From Escherichia phage mellemsur: a stretch of 40,770 nt of DNA. The stretch's first letter is position 1, and every line of letters begins with the position of its first letter. Below the pieces are notes generated by a model, which was not told the DNA's origin, searched no databases, and saw only the letters and a list, made by a program, of their open reading frames with translations. The stretch lies in sequence record MN850570.1; one strand, written 5' to 3'. Made by a program: the position numbers and the translations under genes. This document shows, piece by piece, positions 28,196-33,471 of this stretch.

Positions 28196-28510
28196 CTACT
28201 CCTTAACTTGTTTGCTCAGGTGCTCAATCAGCTTACCGTCTTCGGCGTACTGCTCAACGAGACCTACACCGTATGATGGCTTGCCCGGCTCGTCATATCC
28301 CGGCTGCGCTTGTTTGCGCTGGCCTAAGTCACTCAGTACAGAATGTTGCAGTGCCGGGTCATTCGTACCCGTACCGCCGCAGGCTTCGCAATCCATCAGG
28401 ACTACCTGCCCACCAATCAACATGCCACGGTAGGTGCCGCTACCCATGCAGGCACCACACACTTTATGGTCAACCACCGTGTCGTCAATGGCTCTTTGAT
28501 AACGACTCAT
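28196..28510 (-). CDS. small zinc-finger protein
   Basis: CGACMGSGTY...CEACGGTGT resembles DnaJ-type CxxCxGxG zinc-finger repeats; start moved to internal ATG. Confidence 0.45.
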   Translation of the reverse strand: MSRYQRAIDDTVVDHKVCGACMGSGTYRGMLIGGQVVLMDCEACGGTGTNDPALQHSVLSDLGQRKQAQPGYDEPGKPSYGVGLVEQYAEDGKLIEHLSKQVKE

Positions 28511-28518
28511 ACAATCTC

Positions 28519-28695
28519 CTACGCAAGACAGGCAAACAGAATAGCAGGGATGACAGCCAAGAATACCCACAGGATAAAGCCTGCTGCACCAGACCTGTCA
28601 ACGTGTGTCTTGTTGTACTGGTCGCACGCAGCCAGACAGACAACAGAGAACAGGGCAAACCATACCACAGCTACAATCCAAAGTAAAACACTCAT
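28519..28695 (-). CDS. small membrane protein
   Basis: about 58 aa with two hydrophobic helices; start moved to MSVLLWIV. Confidence 0.4.
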   Translation of the reverse strand: MSVLLWIVAVVWFALFSVVCLAACDQYNKTHVDRSGAAGFILWVFLAVIPAILFACLA

Positions 28696-29270
28696 TTGCG
28701 TTTCCTTAATTCGAGTTCCAGAATGAACAGCGCATTGCACGCAGCGTGCGCCAGATGGTGCAGGTTGGATTCGCTATCCAGTTCCTCACCCTTGCCCACC
28801 GCCGTCAGGTGCCGGAGCAGCGCTGACTTGTAGCGTTCCTCACCTTCCGGTACAGTCTGCCACGAGTGGGCTGCATACTTCTCAGCGCCGAAGGTGAGCA
28901 CGCTGGCTACAGCCTCCAGTGCATTCGGGCAGCCATCGAACAGCAGTGACATGCGGGGCTTGCCGCCGTCAAACTTCATGCCGCCCGGCCCAGCACTCTT
29001 GGCCACGGCCACCTCAACATCACTGGCCGGGTCGTACGGGTCAACCGGGATGAACGCAGTCTCGACTTCTTTCACCTCGAACGGCTCCAGTACCAGCGTG
29101 TGGGTCTTGCCATCCTTCACGCAGGTGTAGTAATCGCGGCTGTCATTCGGCACATCGTACGGTTCGTCGTACGTCAGGATGATACCTTGCTCAGCAATGT
29201 CGCTCAGCAGCGTGCCAGTACCCCAGTTGCGTGTCGGGTCTAAGATAAACTTCTGACCTTTCTTACCCAT
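28692..29270 (-). CDS. putative dATP/dGTP diphosphohydrolase-domain protein
   Basis: C-terminal half KFDGGKPR...VLTFGAEKY...W...LRHL...ELDSESNLHHLAHAACNALF matches my recollection of the dGTP diphosphohydrolase N-terminal domain family; GGAGG Shine-Dalgarno before MGKKGQ start. Confidence 0.45.
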   Translation of the reverse strand: MGKKGQKFILDPTRNWGTGTLLSDIAEQGIILTYDEPYDVPNDSRDYYTCVKDGKTHTLVLEPFEVKEVETAFIPVDPYDPASDVEVAVAKSAGPGGMKFDGGKPRMSLLFDGCPNALEAVASVLTFGAEKYAAHSWQTVPEGEERYKSALLRHLTAVGKGEELDSESNLHHLAHAACNALFILELELRKRK

Positions 29271-29790
29271 TCGCCTTACCTCCATCGACCTTAGAATCAG
29301 CGCCATCGTATTTAGCATTGGCATGAACATACTCATGATTGTCCTCGTACCGGGTCACTTCATAAACCGTGATGCCGAGGCCACGCATGAAGTCAACGAT
29401 GTGCGGCAGGTCGTCGAAAGCACACACGATGTTCTCAATGCCAATGTCCTCCAGCGCCGCCAGCTTCATCTCTGTGTCTTTACGGCAGTCGCCAATCTCT
29501 CTCATGATTAGTTTGTCGTAAACCACACCAGCTTCGTCGAGCCACTGCTCGGTTACTTCACGGGCCACGGCTCCGCGTCCGGTCAGGATGATAATGCGAT
29601 ACGTGAGGGCCAGAGCGTTCACAATATCAATCGTGTCCTGAAACGCAGGGTCGTCAGCGCCAGCCAAGTTGAACTCGGCCCACGCTTCATCAAGGTGCCG
29701 ACGCTCCGGTGGAGGCAGCAGGTGTAAACGCCAACGGCCATCGGCCAGCGTGCCGTCAAGGTCTACTACTACGGTGTCTTTCATGTGCAT
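29263..29790 (-). CDS. HAD-family polynucleotide 3'-phosphatase (T4 Pnk phosphatase-domain-like, no kinase domain)
   Basis: DLDGTLAD (HAD motif I), TGRG, GDCRKD, AFDD collinear with phosphatase domain of T4 polynucleotide kinase; no P-loop. Confidence 0.65.
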   Translation of the reverse strand: MHMKDTVVVDLDGTLADGRWRLHLLPPPERRHLDEAWAEFNLAGADDPAFQDTIDIVNALALTYRIIILTGRGAVAREVTEQWLDEAGVVYDKLIMREIGDCRKDTEMKLAALEDIGIENIVCAFDDLPHIVDFMRGLGITVYEVTRYEDNHEYVHANAKYDGADSKVDGGKANG

Positions 29791-29980
29791 CGTGTGCTTC
29801 CTCAAGAGCGAAAATAATATCTCGGACATATGCCCAAGGCAACCAGACTTCCTCACCGTCCTGCGAAATGCAGACGGTGCCATCCTTATACAGCTCGACC
29901 TGAGTGTTGGCCTCCCACTCAATGGAGAGGCCATCCTCTTTGAGCTGCACCACATCTTCTTGGTACAGTGTTCTCGTCAC
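29756..29980 (-). CDS. hypothetical small protein
   Basis: 74-aa ORF with GTG start overlapping stop of upstream gene; overlaps HAD start. Confidence 0.35.
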   Translation of the reverse strand: MTRTLYQEDVVQLKEDGLSIEWEANTQVELYKDGTVCISQDGEEVWLPWAYVRDIIFALEEAHDAHERHRSSRP

Positions 29981-31104
29981 TCCAACATCTCCGGGCTAAT
30001 GGTGAATCGTGCGACCTCACCGTACCGGGCATGATAAGTAATCACGCTCGCGCTGCGCTCACTCAGCCAGCCACCACGAGAAGCATAGGCATCCTTCGCC
30101 GCCAGCGTGCGGTGCTGCTCGACAATCATGACACCAGACTCTAGCACCTTCTTGTGATGCAGGTGGCCAACGTGTGCATACGCATGTTTGGTTCGGCCAT
30201 ACACTTCGCGGAACTTGGCGACCAGTACAGTCTCCAGTTGTTCTGCCTTACGCTTGTGACCATGGTGGAAGAACAGCGCCGTCTCGCCATGCTCGTAGCA
30301 GTAGTACGGGTCAGGGCTGCGGTCAACAGTGACACGCGGCTCGTCGGCGTACAGTACATGCAGCAGCTCACGCATCCAGATTGAGCTGGCCATGTCGTGG
30401 TTGCCCTCGGCACACACTACGTGAACCTGCGGGAACTTCTCCAGCAGCATACCAATGATGCGGCGCTGCGCCCTGATAGCCACACGTACCAGTTTCTGGA
30501 ATCGCGTGTCAGCATCAAGCACATGCCCACTCGATGGCGTTACTGCATCCAACCCATCCCAGTGCAGGAAGTCACCGAGCTGGCCGAAGATAGCAACCTG
30601 TGCTGGCGGCGCACTGGCAATCGCTGCCGAGAACCACTTGACCAGCAGGTCTTCCGCAATCTTCATATCCCAGTCGTCACCAGTTTCCTCTGCCCACGCC
30701 AGCATACCGAGGTGGTAGTCAGTCAGCACGAACAGGTTCAGCAGCTCAGCAGGTGCCGCGCCCCCGGCGTACGGTCGGGCAGCTTCCGGGGTGATGCTCT
30801 CGCTAATTGCATCGACAGCTTCTTGCAGCAGCGCCAGCTCCTGCTCGCGGTCGAGTGCCGTCTTCACCCACTGCATGACAACGTTGCCGTCCTTATCGTA
30901 CAGCGTGGACGTACCCTTCACCGCATACGGCTCCGGCACTTCCTTCGTCATGTCGTGCTCAGGACTCCAGCCGCTCTTGGCAAGCTGGCGCTTCCGGTAT
31001 CGAATGGCGCTCTCGGTCATGTCATGCTTCTCAGCAATGGCCTTGGTGCCAAGCCCTTCGGCAATGTCTTCTTTGAGTTGGTGATTAGTTAACTTGGTCA
31101 TCAT
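29977..31104 (-). CDS. calcineurin-like metallophosphoesterase with N-terminal HTH-like region
   Basis: Motifs TDYHLG, GDFLH, GNHD, HHGH, GHLHH (binuclear metallophosphoesterase signature); N-terminal about 50 aa helix-turn-helix-like. Confidence 0.7.
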   Translation of the reverse strand: MMTKLTNHQLKEDIAEGLGTKAIAEKHDMTESAIRYRKRQLAKSGWSPEHDMTKEVPEPYAVKGTSTLYDKDGNVVMQWVKTALDREQELALLQEAVDAISESITPEAARPYAGGAAPAELLNLFVLTDYHLGMLAWAEETGDDWDMKIAEDLLVKWFSAAIASAPPAQVAIFGQLGDFLHWDGLDAVTPSSGHVLDADTRFQKLVRVAIRAQRRIIGMLLEKFPQVHVVCAEGNHDMASSIWMRELLHVLYADEPRVTVDRSPDPYYCYEHGETALFFHHGHKRKAEQLETVLVAKFREVYGRTKHAYAHVGHLHHKKVLESGVMIVEQHRTLAAKDAYASRGGWLSERSASVITYHARYGEVARFTISPEMLE

Positions 31105-31493
31105 TTCCCCTTAGTGATTAAGGCTCGCGCTTTCGCGGCTGCTGCCTTCTTACGTCTCTCGGCTGTCGCCGCTTTCTTCTCTGCCTCGGTCTTGTGCGTT
31201 GGGTACATCAGACCAGTGTGTTGCTTACGTCGCCACTCGATGGCGCTGTCCAGCCAGTCATCAACTGTGCGCTGGCGCTTCGCTCGGTTGGCAGAGTTCT
31301 CTACCTTGCCGAGCTGAGCATTACACCAGCGGCAGATGACACCGCGAATCTCCCCACTCACATGGTCGTGGTCAACCACCATGAGCTTGAGGTCTACCAT
31401 CGGCTCGTTACAGAGTGGGCAAGGACAGCCCATCGCATTCTTCCGCATCTGCAACAAGGTCGCGCCAGTCACTTTCCGCATACCATTCCTCAT
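31101..31493 (-). CDS. endonuclease VII-family junction-resolving nuclease
   Basis: CPCPLC...DHDH...GEIRGVICRWCN pattern typical of T4 endo VII / HNH-like fold. Confidence 0.7.
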   Translation of the reverse strand: MRNGMRKVTGATLLQMRKNAMGCPCPLCNEPMVDLKLMVVDHDHVSGEIRGVICRWCNAQLGKVENSANRAKRQRTVDDWLDSAIEWRRKQHTGLMYPTHKTEAEKKAATAERRKKAAAAKARALITKGK

Positions 31494-32571: not shown

Positions 32572-33471
32572 TTACAGACTCGGCAGGCCGAAGTCAGCAT
32601 CGCCAGTCACGTCCGGCTCAGGCTTGGATGCTGCCGACTTGTCAGCCGCGCCAGCCGTTGCCAGCTCCTGCACTTCCTGCTTAACCTCAGCCACTTCCTC
32701 CGGCTGGCCCACGTCGCCCAGCTCAGGCAGCTCAGCGATTGCCGAGCCAGCACCAGCGCCGTTCAGCAGCAGGTCAAGCGGAGAGCCGGGGAACTCAGGA
32801 GATTCCAGCAGCTTGTCCTGAATCCAGTTCTTGGATTTGCCATCGTCGTTCTTGCCTTCGATGTACAGGGATTCCCAGTCCTCTTTGGTCGGACGGTTCC
32901 ACAGGAACAGCTTGAACAGCGTCTCGTCCTCAACCTCCGGCACCGGGTACGGCTGGTCAGTCACCGGGTCAACCGCGAGCATGATGTTCTCAAGGTCGAT
33001 GTTGGCGTACACCTTCTTGTTCTCACCCTCGCCCGATTCGTTGTGGATAATCGGAACAATGAAGGTGTGGTTCAGAAGCTGCGCGAAGTGCTTCGCAGTC
33101 TTGTCCGGGTTCATACGCTTGAACAGTTTGTAAGCGCCGGACTTGCTGTTCAGGTCTTTCTTCACAGCGATGAACTGCGTGCGCACCTTGCCCGGCACCA
33201 TCTTACCATTGACAACTTCATGGTAAGTCTCGCCGTTCTTGGCCTTGCCCCACAGTGCGAACTGGAGGAAGAACTTATTGACAGGCGGTTTGTCCGGTGC
33301 CTGCTTGGTCACGCTCGGCCCCACTTCAATGTAGCCAACCAGTCGCGCCAGTGCCTTACCTTCCGGCAGCAGCTTACCACCACCGGACGTGGCTTCGTTA
33401 AAGTCAAGTTCTTCCTCGTCAACATACTGTTCGACGATGGAGTTCATGCGGTTCAATACAGATGCGGTCAT
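32572..33471 (-). CDS. hypothetical protein with acidic C-terminal tail (possible DNA-replication accessory / ssDNA-binding)
   Basis: 299 aa immediately downstream of DNA polymerase; acidic C-terminus ending ...DADFGLPSL; function speculative. Confidence 0.45.
   Translation of the reverse strand: MTASVLNRMNSIVEQYVDEEELDFNEATSGGGKLLPEGKALARLVGYIEVGPSVTKQAPDKPPVNKFFLQFALWGKAKNGETYHEVVNGKMVPGKVRTQFIAVKKDLNSKSGAYKLFKRMNPDKTAKHFAQLLNHTFIVPIIHNESGEGENKKVYANIDLENIMLAVDPVTDQPYPVPEVEDETLFKLFLWNRPTKEDWESLYIEGKNDDGKSKNWIQDKLLESPEFPGSPLDLLLNGAGAGSAIAELPELGDVGQPEEVAEVKQEVQELATAGAADKSAASKPEPDVTGDADFGLPSL

Follow-up and report, generated by a model that had tools for sequence, protein, structure and literature searches.

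The predicted metallophosphatase A1 of phage T5, encoded in the same operon as dmp, is required for the degradation of host DNA and suffices to cause it (bioRxiv 10.64898/2026.04.02.716235). The Dmp protein of this phage is a dNMP 5'-phosphatase. Another metallophosphoesterase (MPE), mycobacteriophage Gp48, disrupts host genomic DNA (PMC12287305). The PUA-Calcineurin-CE-HAD system uses a HAD enzyme to convert dATP to dADP and a calcineurin-like MPE to convert dADP to dAMP, and some systems of this type carry MazG in place of the MPE (bioRxiv 10.64898/2026.01.15.699771). Breakdown of host DNA with reuse of its nucleotides has long been known for phages T1 and TLS, although no gene has been assigned to it (PMC11447400). 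According to a reference cited in that article, T1 mutants defective in host DNA breakdown show higher transduction. Here we compare these systems with a phage gene that encodes an MPE fused to an N-terminal helix-turn-helix (HTH), which we refer to as HTH-MPE.

A common phage family with a fused helix-turn-helix

The HTH-MPE gene is a complete open reading frame within the window, by which we mean the whole 40,770-nucleotide stretch of DNA that was analysed (Table 1). Its product is 100% identical to the 'phosphoesterase' megetsur_28 of Escherichia phage megetsur (Autographiviridae, Bonnellvirus), for which the GenBank start lies at 31101, one codon downstream of the ATG of our reading frame. 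The protein matches PHROG 704 over its full length (E=1e-146; residues 3-374 against profile positions 2-389 of 390). HTH-MPE is a member of an already catalogued, very common phage family and is not new. The name of this PHROG, 'DNA repair exonuclease', is an annotation-level label, and GenBank calls its members 'phosphoesterase' or 'metallophosphoesterase'.

Relatives of HTH-MPE occur in 2043 GenBank phage genome records, with at least 80% of the query covered in 1932 of them, and clustering at 50% identity yields 4894 representatives of the family. In the Drexlerviridae the family is persistent, being a core gene in 508 of 522 (PMC13164509). PHROG 704 members from Webervirus, mEp021 and Vibrio phages have the same arrangement of HTH, connector and MPE domain, and those of T1-like, Jersey/Kaguna-like, Dhillonvirus and Bonnellvirus phages show no structural difference from HTH-MPE. 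Literature searches found no biochemical study of the PHROG 704 family. Neither the protein nor a 76-sequence profile gave a meaningful match among PDB sequences, NCBIfam gave no match for the MPE, and the PADLOC models matched neither the MPE nor any other protein of the window.

Table 1. Positions of the HTH-MPE gene, its domains and motifs, and its neighbours in the window
Feature	Position	Strand	Details
Recombination endonuclease VII, upstream gene	31101..31493	-	Pfam Endonuclease_7, E=3.6e-13
HTH-MPE, complete ORF	29977..31104	-	375 aa; ATG start; stop codon 29977-29979
HTH domain, residues 1-45	30970..31104	-	helices 7-15, 20-26, 31-43
Connector, residues 46-105	30790..30969	-	conserved
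MPE catalytic domain, residues 121-375	29980..30744	-	motifs I-V
Motif I, D129-Y-H131	30712-30720	-	located in sequence
Motif II, G177-D-F-L-H181	30562-30576	-	located in sequence
Motif III, G234-N-H-D237	30394-30405	-	located in sequence
Motif IV, H280-H-G-H283	30256-30267	-	located in sequence
Motif V, G313-H-L-H-H317	30154-30168	-	located in sequence
74-aa ORF	29756..29980	-	GTG start overlaps MPE stop (GTGA)
HAD-family phosphatase	29263..29790	-	Pfam HAD_PNKP, E=1.3e-14; PHROG 415, E=5e-55
dATP/dGTP diphosphohydrolase N-terminal-domain protein	28692..29270	-	Pfam dGTP_diPhyd_N, E=5.6e-33; PHROG 801

The first-pass annotation had noted an HTH-like region at the N-terminus, and this was borne out. 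The three helices are predicted with pLDDT of about 90 and form the tri-helical HTH fold of the LuxR/GerE and sigma-70 region 4 type. Among the homologues, Pfam matches were obtained to HTH_1 (22), HTH_8 (14), Sigma70_r4_2 (13), HTH_50 (13) and GerE (7). The same annotation regarded the module as atypical, which holds for metallophosphoesterases generally but not for its own family, where the extent of the PHROG 704 match and the coverage in the 1932 records make the HTH the norm. We infer that the predicted HTH binds DNA, and the property that speaks for this is its basic character (pI 9.6). It is also the most variable part of the protein (19% identity) and could serve in protein contacts or regulation instead.

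Between the HTH and the catalytic domain, the connector contains an SPEHD motif, a helix (86-101) and a beta-hairpin made up of residues 60-69 and 75-84, in which STLYD and QWVK occur. G45, G64, S66, G73, W79 and K81, in or near this segment, are invariant. A Campylobacter-phage homologue without the HTH, the F348 protein, aligns from profile column 79 (PHROG 704 position 78) and retains the connector, which is therefore part of the family core.

The catalytic core and its nearest folds

A full binuclear metallophosphoesterase signature had been claimed for this protein, and we could place all five motifs in the sequence, far beyond chance expectation. In an alignment of 88 homologues (35-59% identity), D129, H131, G177, D178, N235, H236, H281 and H316 are invariant, and conservation reaches at least 90% at H181, D237, H283 and H314; each of the seven metal ligands, like the histidine of motif III, falls in one of these two groups. 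The core combines the DxH, GD, GNH[DE], H and GHxH motifs of the calcineurin-like superfamily with its alpha/beta sandwich fold and a family-profile match. We conclude that HTH-MPE is a complete binuclear metallophosphoesterase and presumably active.

In the predicted structure, the core is most similar in fold to Mre11/SbcD nucleases (PDB 3qg5, 7dog and 6s6v), at an identity of just 13-17%. Motif I (TDYHLG) resembles the SDWHLG of E. coli SbcD but not the GDLHG of lambda NinI, and a DxHLG-type motif I together with GNHD is what an Mre11/SbcD-type core carries. Of the alternatives listed in the first-pass annotation, a DNA-repair nuclease comes closest by modelled fold, and we predict that HTH-MPE is probably a Mn2+-dependent DNA exo- or endonuclease.

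Membership of the Mre11/SbcD group by sequence profile was not found in Pfam, NCBIfam or PDB-sequence searches, and E. coli SbcD falls in PHROG 100 whereas HTH-MPE falls in PHROG 704 (hhalign between the two, P=0.017). The protein ends 58 residues past motif V, with the last strands of the core, and has no Mre11/SbcD-type capping domain. No Rad50/SbcC-type ATPase was found among the neighbours or in the annotation of the identical phage, which lists 54 genes. Unlike Mre11/SbcD, HTH-MPE carries an N-terminal HTH.

A second relative by fold is the archaeal PolD small subunit DP1 (PDB 5ihe), a 3'-5' proofreading exonuclease of the Mre11/SbcD/PolD-DP1 fold type. A depositor's note on the Kagunavirus orthologue records an HHpred probability of 99.59 to the PolD small subunit. 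Unlike PolD, the phage that encodes HTH-MPE lacks a DP2 partner and uses a family-A DNA polymerase, and the N-terminal module is an HTH here and a set of DP1 N-terminal domains in archaeal PolD.

The motifs depart from those of PPP enzymes, which are not the closest fold neighbours of HTH-MPE. Where lambda NinI has GDLHG, GDLVDRG and GNHE, HTH-MPE has TDYHLG, GDFLHWDG (with no Arg) and GNHD, and the PPP signature GDxHG, GDxVDRG, GNHE is absent.

Gene neighbourhood

The gene lies in a run that comprises DNA polymerase, 5'-3' exonuclease, endonuclease VII, MPE, HAD and MazG-like genes. Translational coupling is suggested by the TGA stop of the endonuclease VII gene, which overlaps the MPE start (AAATGATGACC). 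The 74-aa ORF is limited to Bonnellvirus-type loci (4 of 80) and has a weak match to Pfam IN_DBD_C. We considered it as a counterpart of the SH3 protein that comes after the MPE gene in Tunavirus/Drexlerviridae and rejected this, since the comparison revealed no homology (P=0.53). The first-pass annotation spoke of a neighbouring NTase, which we did not find; the gene beyond the HAD carries a dGTP_diPhyd_N domain. Its product, MazG-like by our own reading, ends the nucleotide-metabolism run, and 15 of 80 IMG/VR loci have a MazG-like gene in the vicinity of the MPE gene.

The HAD protein is annotated 'polynucleotide kinase/phosphatase-like', yet it has no kinase domain. It falls in PHROG 415, as does T5 Dmp (E=3.6e-57). 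Direct BLASTP comparison of these two proteins is marginal (E=0.052), and a profile match in a 12-sequence database gives E of about 1e-5; the shared PHROG and the profile match together link the HAD to Dmp. A weaker PHROG match (1e-19) is to a polynucleotide-kinase profile of 295 positions, of which only the C-terminal part aligns.

We collected related loci using the alignment of closer homologues and one Webervirus protein as queries. Orthologues of the HAD (47-58% identity) directly follow the MPE gene in Webervirus and Kagunavirus, and the MPE-then-HAD order thereby recurs in three unrelated lineages, Bonnellvirus, Webervirus and Kagunavirus. Cooperation with the HAD had been suggested earlier, and this recurrent synteny supports a functional link; the HAD phosphatase is likely the functional partner of the MPE. 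An obligatory pairing was rejected, as the HAD lies within 2.5 kb of the MPE gene in only 12 of 47 dereplicated IMG/VR lineages, and in 32 of the 47 the surroundings of the gene contain neither a HAD nor a dNMP kinase nor a MazG-like gene.

Other relatives occupy different surroundings. In the temperate phage mEp021, the MPE gene sits between a zinc-ribbon protein and DnaB, inside the replication module. It adjoins a DNA ligase and a Holliday-junction resolvase in Fletchervirus and is downstream of helicase, VRR-NUC and Dam in the Drexlerviridae. Some relatives are found in nin-like regions, adjoining NinG-like or Q-like genes.

Candidate roles and comparison with known systems

We propose, with a probability of roughly 40%, that HTH-MPE is an HTH-tethered, Mn-dependent and Rad50-independent DNA nuclease that feeds nucleotide salvage, by analogy with T5 A1 and Dmp. 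In this proposal, a binuclear-metal (probably Mn2+) phosphodiesterase with an Mre11/SbcD/PolD-DP1-type core would cut DNA without a Rad50/SbcC partner or a C-terminal capping domain, while the basic LuxR/sigma-4-type HTH would hold it on duplex DNA. Together with the adjacent endonuclease VII and the 5'-3' exonuclease, it would break DNA, most likely the host chromosome, to mononucleotides. These would then be processed by the Dmp-like HAD phosphatase and the MazG-like protein, or by HAD and dNMP kinase in the siphovirus version. The analysis shows the fold, the intact catalytic residues, the HTH fold, the operon-type packing of the genes and the recurring synteny with genes of nucleotide metabolism; DNA as the substrate, the host chromosome as the target and the coupling to the HAD enzyme are what we infer from the comparisons.

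The position of the MPE gene, coupled within the run from polymerase to MazG-like gene, strengthens the proposal, as does its location elsewhere in replication and recombination modules (mEp021, Fletchervirus, Drexlerviridae). Also in its favour are the conserved metal ligands, the SbcD-like motif I, the depositor's PolD match, the basic HTH, the recurrent MPE-then-HAD order, the PHROG shared by the HAD and T5 Dmp, the precedents of T5 A1 and Gp48, and host DNA breakdown by T1 and TLS alongside the persistence of the family in the Drexlerviridae. The salvage role is weakened by the 32 lineages that have none of the three nucleotide-metabolism genes nearby. T7-type phages already have an endonuclease and an exonuclease that together break down host DNA, which also counts against the proposed role, as do the mere superfamily-level relation to T5 A1, the site of the gene in mEp021 and the variability of the HTH.

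A possible, if doubtful, alternative is that HTH-MPE acts as an exo- or endonuclease on the phage's own DNA, through Rad50-independent, Mre11-like processing of ends or hairpins, in recombination-dependent replication, concatemer processing or repair. The temperate phage mEp021, with its MPE gene inside the replication module, suits a role in replication or recombination at least equally well. The sites by the Fletchervirus ligase and resolvase and after the Drexlerviridae helicase and VRR-NUC, the endonuclease VII and 5'-3' exonuclease neighbours, the PHROG label and the rank of Mre11 and SbcD as closest folds point the same way. Against it stand the genome's lack of an SbcC/Rad50-like ATPase, the missing capping domain and the failure to match SbcD-type profiles, and it leaves unexplained why HAD, dNMP kinase and MazG-like genes are repeatedly linked to the MPE gene.

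It is unlikely that HTH-MPE is instead a phosphohydrolase of dNTPs, dNDPs or similar nucleotides that reshapes nucleotide pools in a two-enzyme cascade with the HAD. The MPE-then-HAD order and the MazG-like or dNMP kinase gene that comes after it would suit such a cascade, and the HAD and MPE of PUA-Calcineurin-CE-HAD, acting on dATP and dADP, provide a precedent (bioRxiv 10.64898/2026.01.15.699771). However, a DNA-binding-type HTH has no obvious use on a small-molecule substrate, the top fold matches are nucleases, the PADLOC models found no match, and the HAD partner is missing in most lineages.

The first-pass annotation proposed a Pnkp-type RNA-repair enzyme, in which a 2',3'-cyclic phosphodiesterase and 3'-phosphatase heals RNA ends and cooperates with the HAD in tRNA or RNA repair. 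We consider this very improbable. In Clostridium thermocellum Pnkp, an MPE serves as the phosphatase module, and the HAD neighbour matches Pfam HAD_PNKP (E=1.3e-14). However, the HTH-MPE core lacks the lambda/PPP-type motifs common to Pnkp phosphatase modules, and the HAD fits the Dmp PHROG far better than the polynucleotide-kinase-type PHROG (5e-55 versus 1e-19). Additionally, no P-loop polynucleotide kinase or ligase domain was found in the neighbours or the other ORFs scanned or is annotated in the genome, in which we detected neither a kinase domain nor any RNA or DNA ligase.

We give similarly little credence to an anti-defence phosphodiesterase that destroys immune signalling nucleotides, such as the cyclic oligonucleotides of CBASS, type III CRISPR or Pycsar: the HTH would be left unexplained, nucleases are the best folds, the context is one of replication and nucleotide metabolism and not of known anti-defence clusters, and the gene is core and persistent in the Drexlerviridae (PMC13164509) rather than accessory. 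Least probable of all is a Ser/Thr/Tyr protein phosphatase like lambda NinI, another earlier suggestion, for which shared superfamily membership and the relatives near NinG-like or Q-like genes in nin-like regions are outweighed by the absent PPP signature and a poor hhalign score against NinI (P=0.067).

Returning to the proposed DNA nuclease, we tentatively entertain a broader idea, in which PHROG 704 might be the long-sought host-chromosome nuclease of T1-like phages and many other siphoviruses. In function it would correspond to T5 A1 and A2 joined in one protein, and with the Dmp-like HAD it would make up a mobile cassette for degrading DNA and processing the nucleotides, exchanged between siphoviruses and this T7-like podovirus. 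If so, the HTH, which evolves fast, would target the enzyme to DNA or allow it to discriminate host from phage DNA. The HTH-MPE family is among the commonest uncharacterised enzymes of enterobacterial phages. Were it the T1/TLS nuclease, an old question would be answered and the T5 A1 paradigm extended to thousands of phages. Because breakdown-defective T1 mutants transduce more, the identity of this nuclease would bear on generalized transduction, and also on the choice of therapeutic phages. The finding would be ordinary if HTH-MPE were merely a recombination or housekeeping nuclease.

Among the described systems, Gp48 of mycobacteriophage A10ZJ24 (cluster A) is a phage MPE with phosphodiesterase activity, likened to HTH-MPE by description (PMC12287305). 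Its motif I is at residue 10 (D10G mutant), which leaves no room for an N-terminal HTH or a connector. The PUA-Calcineurin-CE-HAD module, again likened by description, pairs a calcineurin-like MPE with a HAD and acts on deoxynucleotides; unlike HTH-MPE, it is a bacterial host defence with a PUA sensor domain, and its substrates are dNTPs and dNDPs, not DNA.

For T5 A1, we compared a profile of seven diverse A1-like proteins with the 88-sequence HTH-MPE profile. The hhalign match is weak (probability 28%, P=6e-4 over 137 columns), and in single-sequence comparisons the scores of A1 members (P of 1e-3 to 0.065) overlap those of the SbcD (0.017) and NinI (0.067) controls. HTH-MPE does not match PHROG 1745, the sole PHROG matched by T5 A1. 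T5 A2 was rejected as a relative of the HTH region, with no detectable similarity (P=0.19). A1 has 556 residues and a long, unrelated N-terminal half, unlike HTH-MPE, and the two are locally similar around motif III (NHDxAxSxW) and at the C-terminal tail. We place their relation at the superfamily level and keep A1 as an analogy only. In gene organization, T5 A1 is, like HTH-MPE, a phage MPE encoded beside a HAD phosphatase of PHROG 415, and where the T5 operon encodes a separate DNA-binding protein, A2, HTH-MPE has its predicted DNA-binding domain fused to the enzyme.

Conserved core, connector and helix-turn-helix

The 375-aa metallophosphoesterase (MPE) has an intact binuclear active site on an Mre11/SbcD/DP1-like core, preceded by a basic helix-turn-helix (HTH; residues 1-45). 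All five motifs that the first-pass annotation had read in the protein were located where it placed them: D129-x-H131, G177-D178 (GDFLH), G234-N-H-D237, H280-H-G-H283 and G313-H-L-H-H317. Across 88 homologs (35-59% identity), D129, H131, G177, D178, N235, H236, H281 and H316 are invariant, and conservation reaches at least 90% at H181, D237, H283 and H314. Because the full ligand set of the binuclear center and the motif III histidine are present, we expect an active hydrolase. The family is a distant branch of the superfamily, as the Pfam Metallophos match of this MPE is sub-threshold (E = 0.018) and a PDB sequence search returned nothing detectably related. Nor does the MPE belong to the Mre11/SbcD family in the strict sense. 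We found no Mre11/SbcD profile match, the protein leaves no room for an Mre11/SbcD capping domain, and the genome encodes no SbcC/Rad50-like partner. Additionally, E. coli SbcD belongs to phage protein family PHROG 100, whereas the MPE matches PHROG 704 ("DNA repair exonuclease") over its full length (E = 1e-146).

A well-conserved connector (residues 46-105) joins the HTH to the core; it contains an SPEHD motif, a beta-hairpin with STLYD and QWVK, and one helix. It is kept in a homolog that lacks the HTH; this 317-aa PHROG 704 member from Campylobacter phage F348 (locus L093, 3498-4451) shows that the connector and MPE form a conserved core to which the HTH is added. The F348 gene, annotated as a "putative recombination endonuclease", is flanked by a DNA ligase gene and a small ORF, with a Holliday-junction resolvase nearby.

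Relatives of the MPE occur in 2043 of 50,697 phage records (tblastn), chiefly Escherichia, Klebsiella, Salmonella and Vibrio phages, and an exhaustive HMMER search recovered 4894 family representatives among 50%-identity clusters. A 2026 pangenome study found the "DNA repair exonuclease" to be persistent in 508 of 522 Drexlerviridae (PMC13164509). The gene, the family and even the HTH are already in public annotation, with some relatives named "winged helix-turn-helix domain-containing protein" or "sigma-70 region 4 domain-containing protein"; our literature search found no experimental study of the family. The sequence would not surprise a specialist; its interest is that it offers a hypothesis on a very abundant phage gene that can be tested cheaply.

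Genome setting and operon

In reverse complement, the window represents a nearly complete Bonnellvirus genome (Autographiviridae, J8-65-like). A 5.5-kb stretch around the MPE gene shares 99.0-99.2% identity with Enterobacter phages BHUENT7 and SS-2025 and Escherichia phage megetsur, whose megetsur_28 ("phosphoesterase") is 100% identical to the MPE. The minus-strand order is DNA polymerase I, a 299-aa ORF, a 71-aa ORF, 5'-3' exonuclease, endonuclease VII and the MPE, followed by a 74-aa ORF, a HAD phosphatase, a MazG-like protein, two small ORFs and a single-subunit RNA polymerase. Since the MPE gene overlaps both neighbors, its start with the endonuclease VII stop (AAATGATGACC) and its stop with the GTG start codon of the 74-aa ORF (GTGA), the MPE sits in a tightly coupled operon with endonuclease VII and the 5'-3' exonuclease.

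Features around the MPE gene discussed in the text
Feature	Coordinates	Strand	Remarks
299-aa ORF	32572-33471	-	directly after DNA polymerase; PHROG 862
MPE	29977-31104	-	375 aa
74-aa ORF	29756-29980	-	translationally coupled to MPE stop; only in Bonnellvirus-type loci
HAD phosphatase	29263-29790	-	175 aa per GenBank coordinates; annotated "polynucleotide 5'-kinase/3'-phosphatase-like"
MazG-like protein	28692-29270	-	after HAD gene; Pfam dGTP_diPhyd_N, E = 5.6e-33
Small ORF	28196-28570	-	just upstream of RNA polymerase gene

The 74-aa ORF has a borderline Pfam match to an integrase C-terminal domain, which we take to be an SH3-like fold. Tunavirus genomes carry a standalone SH3 protein at this position after the MPE gene, and homology between the two was not detectable (P = 0.53). 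The 299-aa ORF gives a weak, sub-threshold NCBIfam match to the phage replication initiation protein family NGO0469 (E = 3.9e-4), and the small ORF contains CxxCxGxG repeats with a weak Pfam match to the DnaJ central zinc-finger domain (E = 1.2e-3).

Linkage to nucleotide-processing enzymes

The proposal that the MPE cooperates with the neighboring HAD phosphatase gains support from a recurrent MPE-then-HAD gene order. The pair lies within the replication module in Bonnellvirus, ahead of the lysis cassette in Webervirus, where a dNMP kinase gene follows, and in a three-gene island among tail genes, dNMP kinase next, in Kagunavirus; identities among the three are 41-54% for the MPE and 47-58% for the HAD proteins. 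An independent observation is that, among Drexlerviridae without an SH3 gene, this exonuclease is most often followed directly by "polynucleotide kinase" or dNMP kinase (PMC13164509). Dereplicating 160 IMG/VR loci gave 47 lineages with sufficient flanking sequence; 12 of these had a HAD gene within 2.5 kb of the MPE gene, and 15 had at least one HAD, dNMP kinase or MazG-like gene within that distance. MazG-like genes adjoin the MPE gene in 15/80 related IMG/VR loci, sometimes directly upstream. The MPE-HAD link is recurrent, not obligatory. In mEp021, Fletchervirus and Hanrivervirus the MPE gene occupies replication/recombination modules; its contexts in one Vibrio phage and one Dhillonvirus, among lysis and structural genes, are uninformative. 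Outside Bonnellvirus-like phages, the nearest MPE relatives are siphoviral (Kagunavirus, Jersey-like; ~54% identity) and the HAD gene has a similar pattern, suggesting that an MPE-HAD cassette was exchanged between siphoviruses and the T7-like podovirus lineage of the window.

The HAD protein consists of a phosphatase domain only, with the kinase absent. It matches PHROG 415 (E = 5e-55), as does T5 Dmp (3.6e-57), a characterized deoxynucleoside-5'-monophosphatase; a second PHROG match (1e-19) is confined to the C-terminal portion of a polynucleotide-kinase profile 295 positions long. The family's "polynucleotide kinase" name is apparently a mislabel inherited from T4 PseT. Pairwise BLAST between the HAD protein and Dmp is marginal, so the relation is one of remote family membership and no proof of the same substrate. 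We read the next protein, with its dATP/dGTP diphosphohydrolase N-terminal domain, as MazG-like.

Candidate role and the T5 parallel

We favor a role in host-DNA degradation and nucleotide salvage, at a probability of roughly 40%, based on the nucleotide-metabolism linkage and on precedents. T5 A1 is both required for breakdown of the host chromosome and enough on its own to cause it (2026 preprint, 10.64898/2026.04.02.716235), and mycobacteriophage Gp48 is an MPE reported to disrupt host genomic DNA (PMC12287305). A further reason is that no nuclease has been assigned to the host-DNA degradation of phages T1 and TLS (PMC11447400). The HTH would tether the enzyme to duplex DNA, where the core could act as an Mn2+-dependent exo- or endonuclease that cuts phosphodiester bonds with no need for a Rad50-like ATPase; the HAD, MazG-like and dNMP kinase enzymes may then handle the resulting nucleotides. 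A rival role for the MPE, processing intermediates that arise as the phage replicates or recombines its own DNA, ranks lower, and we consider it rather unlikely. A nucleotide-level role is possible: in the bacterial PUA-Calcineurin-CE-HAD defense module, HAD converts dATP to dADP, a calcineurin-like MPE converts dADP to dAMP, and MazG can replace the MPE (10.64898/2026.01.15.699771), much as MPE, HAD and MazG-like genes stand in a row here. However, the window proteins match no PADLOC model, and the HTH is hard to explain for a small-molecule enzyme. The Pnkp-type RNA repair suggested in the first-pass annotation finds little support, because neither annotation nor our searches turned up a polynucleotide kinase domain, an RNA ligase or a DNA ligase in the genome, and the core is non-PPP.

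T5 encodes the DNA-binding protein A2, the predicted metallophosphatase A1 and Dmp in a single operon, and their order is preserved in other Demerecviridae. A1-like proteins also occur outside Demerecviridae: the 1135 phage records with a tblastn match extend to Agrobacterium Autographiviridae (Atu_ph03), Caulobacter phiCbK-like phages, Flavobacterium Elemovirus and Vibrio phage RYC, and the genes usually lie close to others for DNA replication or nucleotide metabolism. When a profile built from seven diverse A1-like proteins was compared with the MPE profile, the 137 aligned columns ran from motif III through motif V and took in the C-terminal tail, at a probability of only 28% (P = 6e-4). 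Scored as single sequences, A1 proteins reach P = 1e-3 to 0.065, a range that overlaps the controls SbcD (0.017) and the lambda phosphatase NinI (0.067), and no similarity was found between A2 and the HTH region. The parallel is therefore best regarded as functional analogy plus superfamily-level homology only. Within that analogy, the family looks like a compact counterpart of the T5 arrangement, with a DNA-binding domain fused to the MPE and a Dmp-type HAD phosphatase following.
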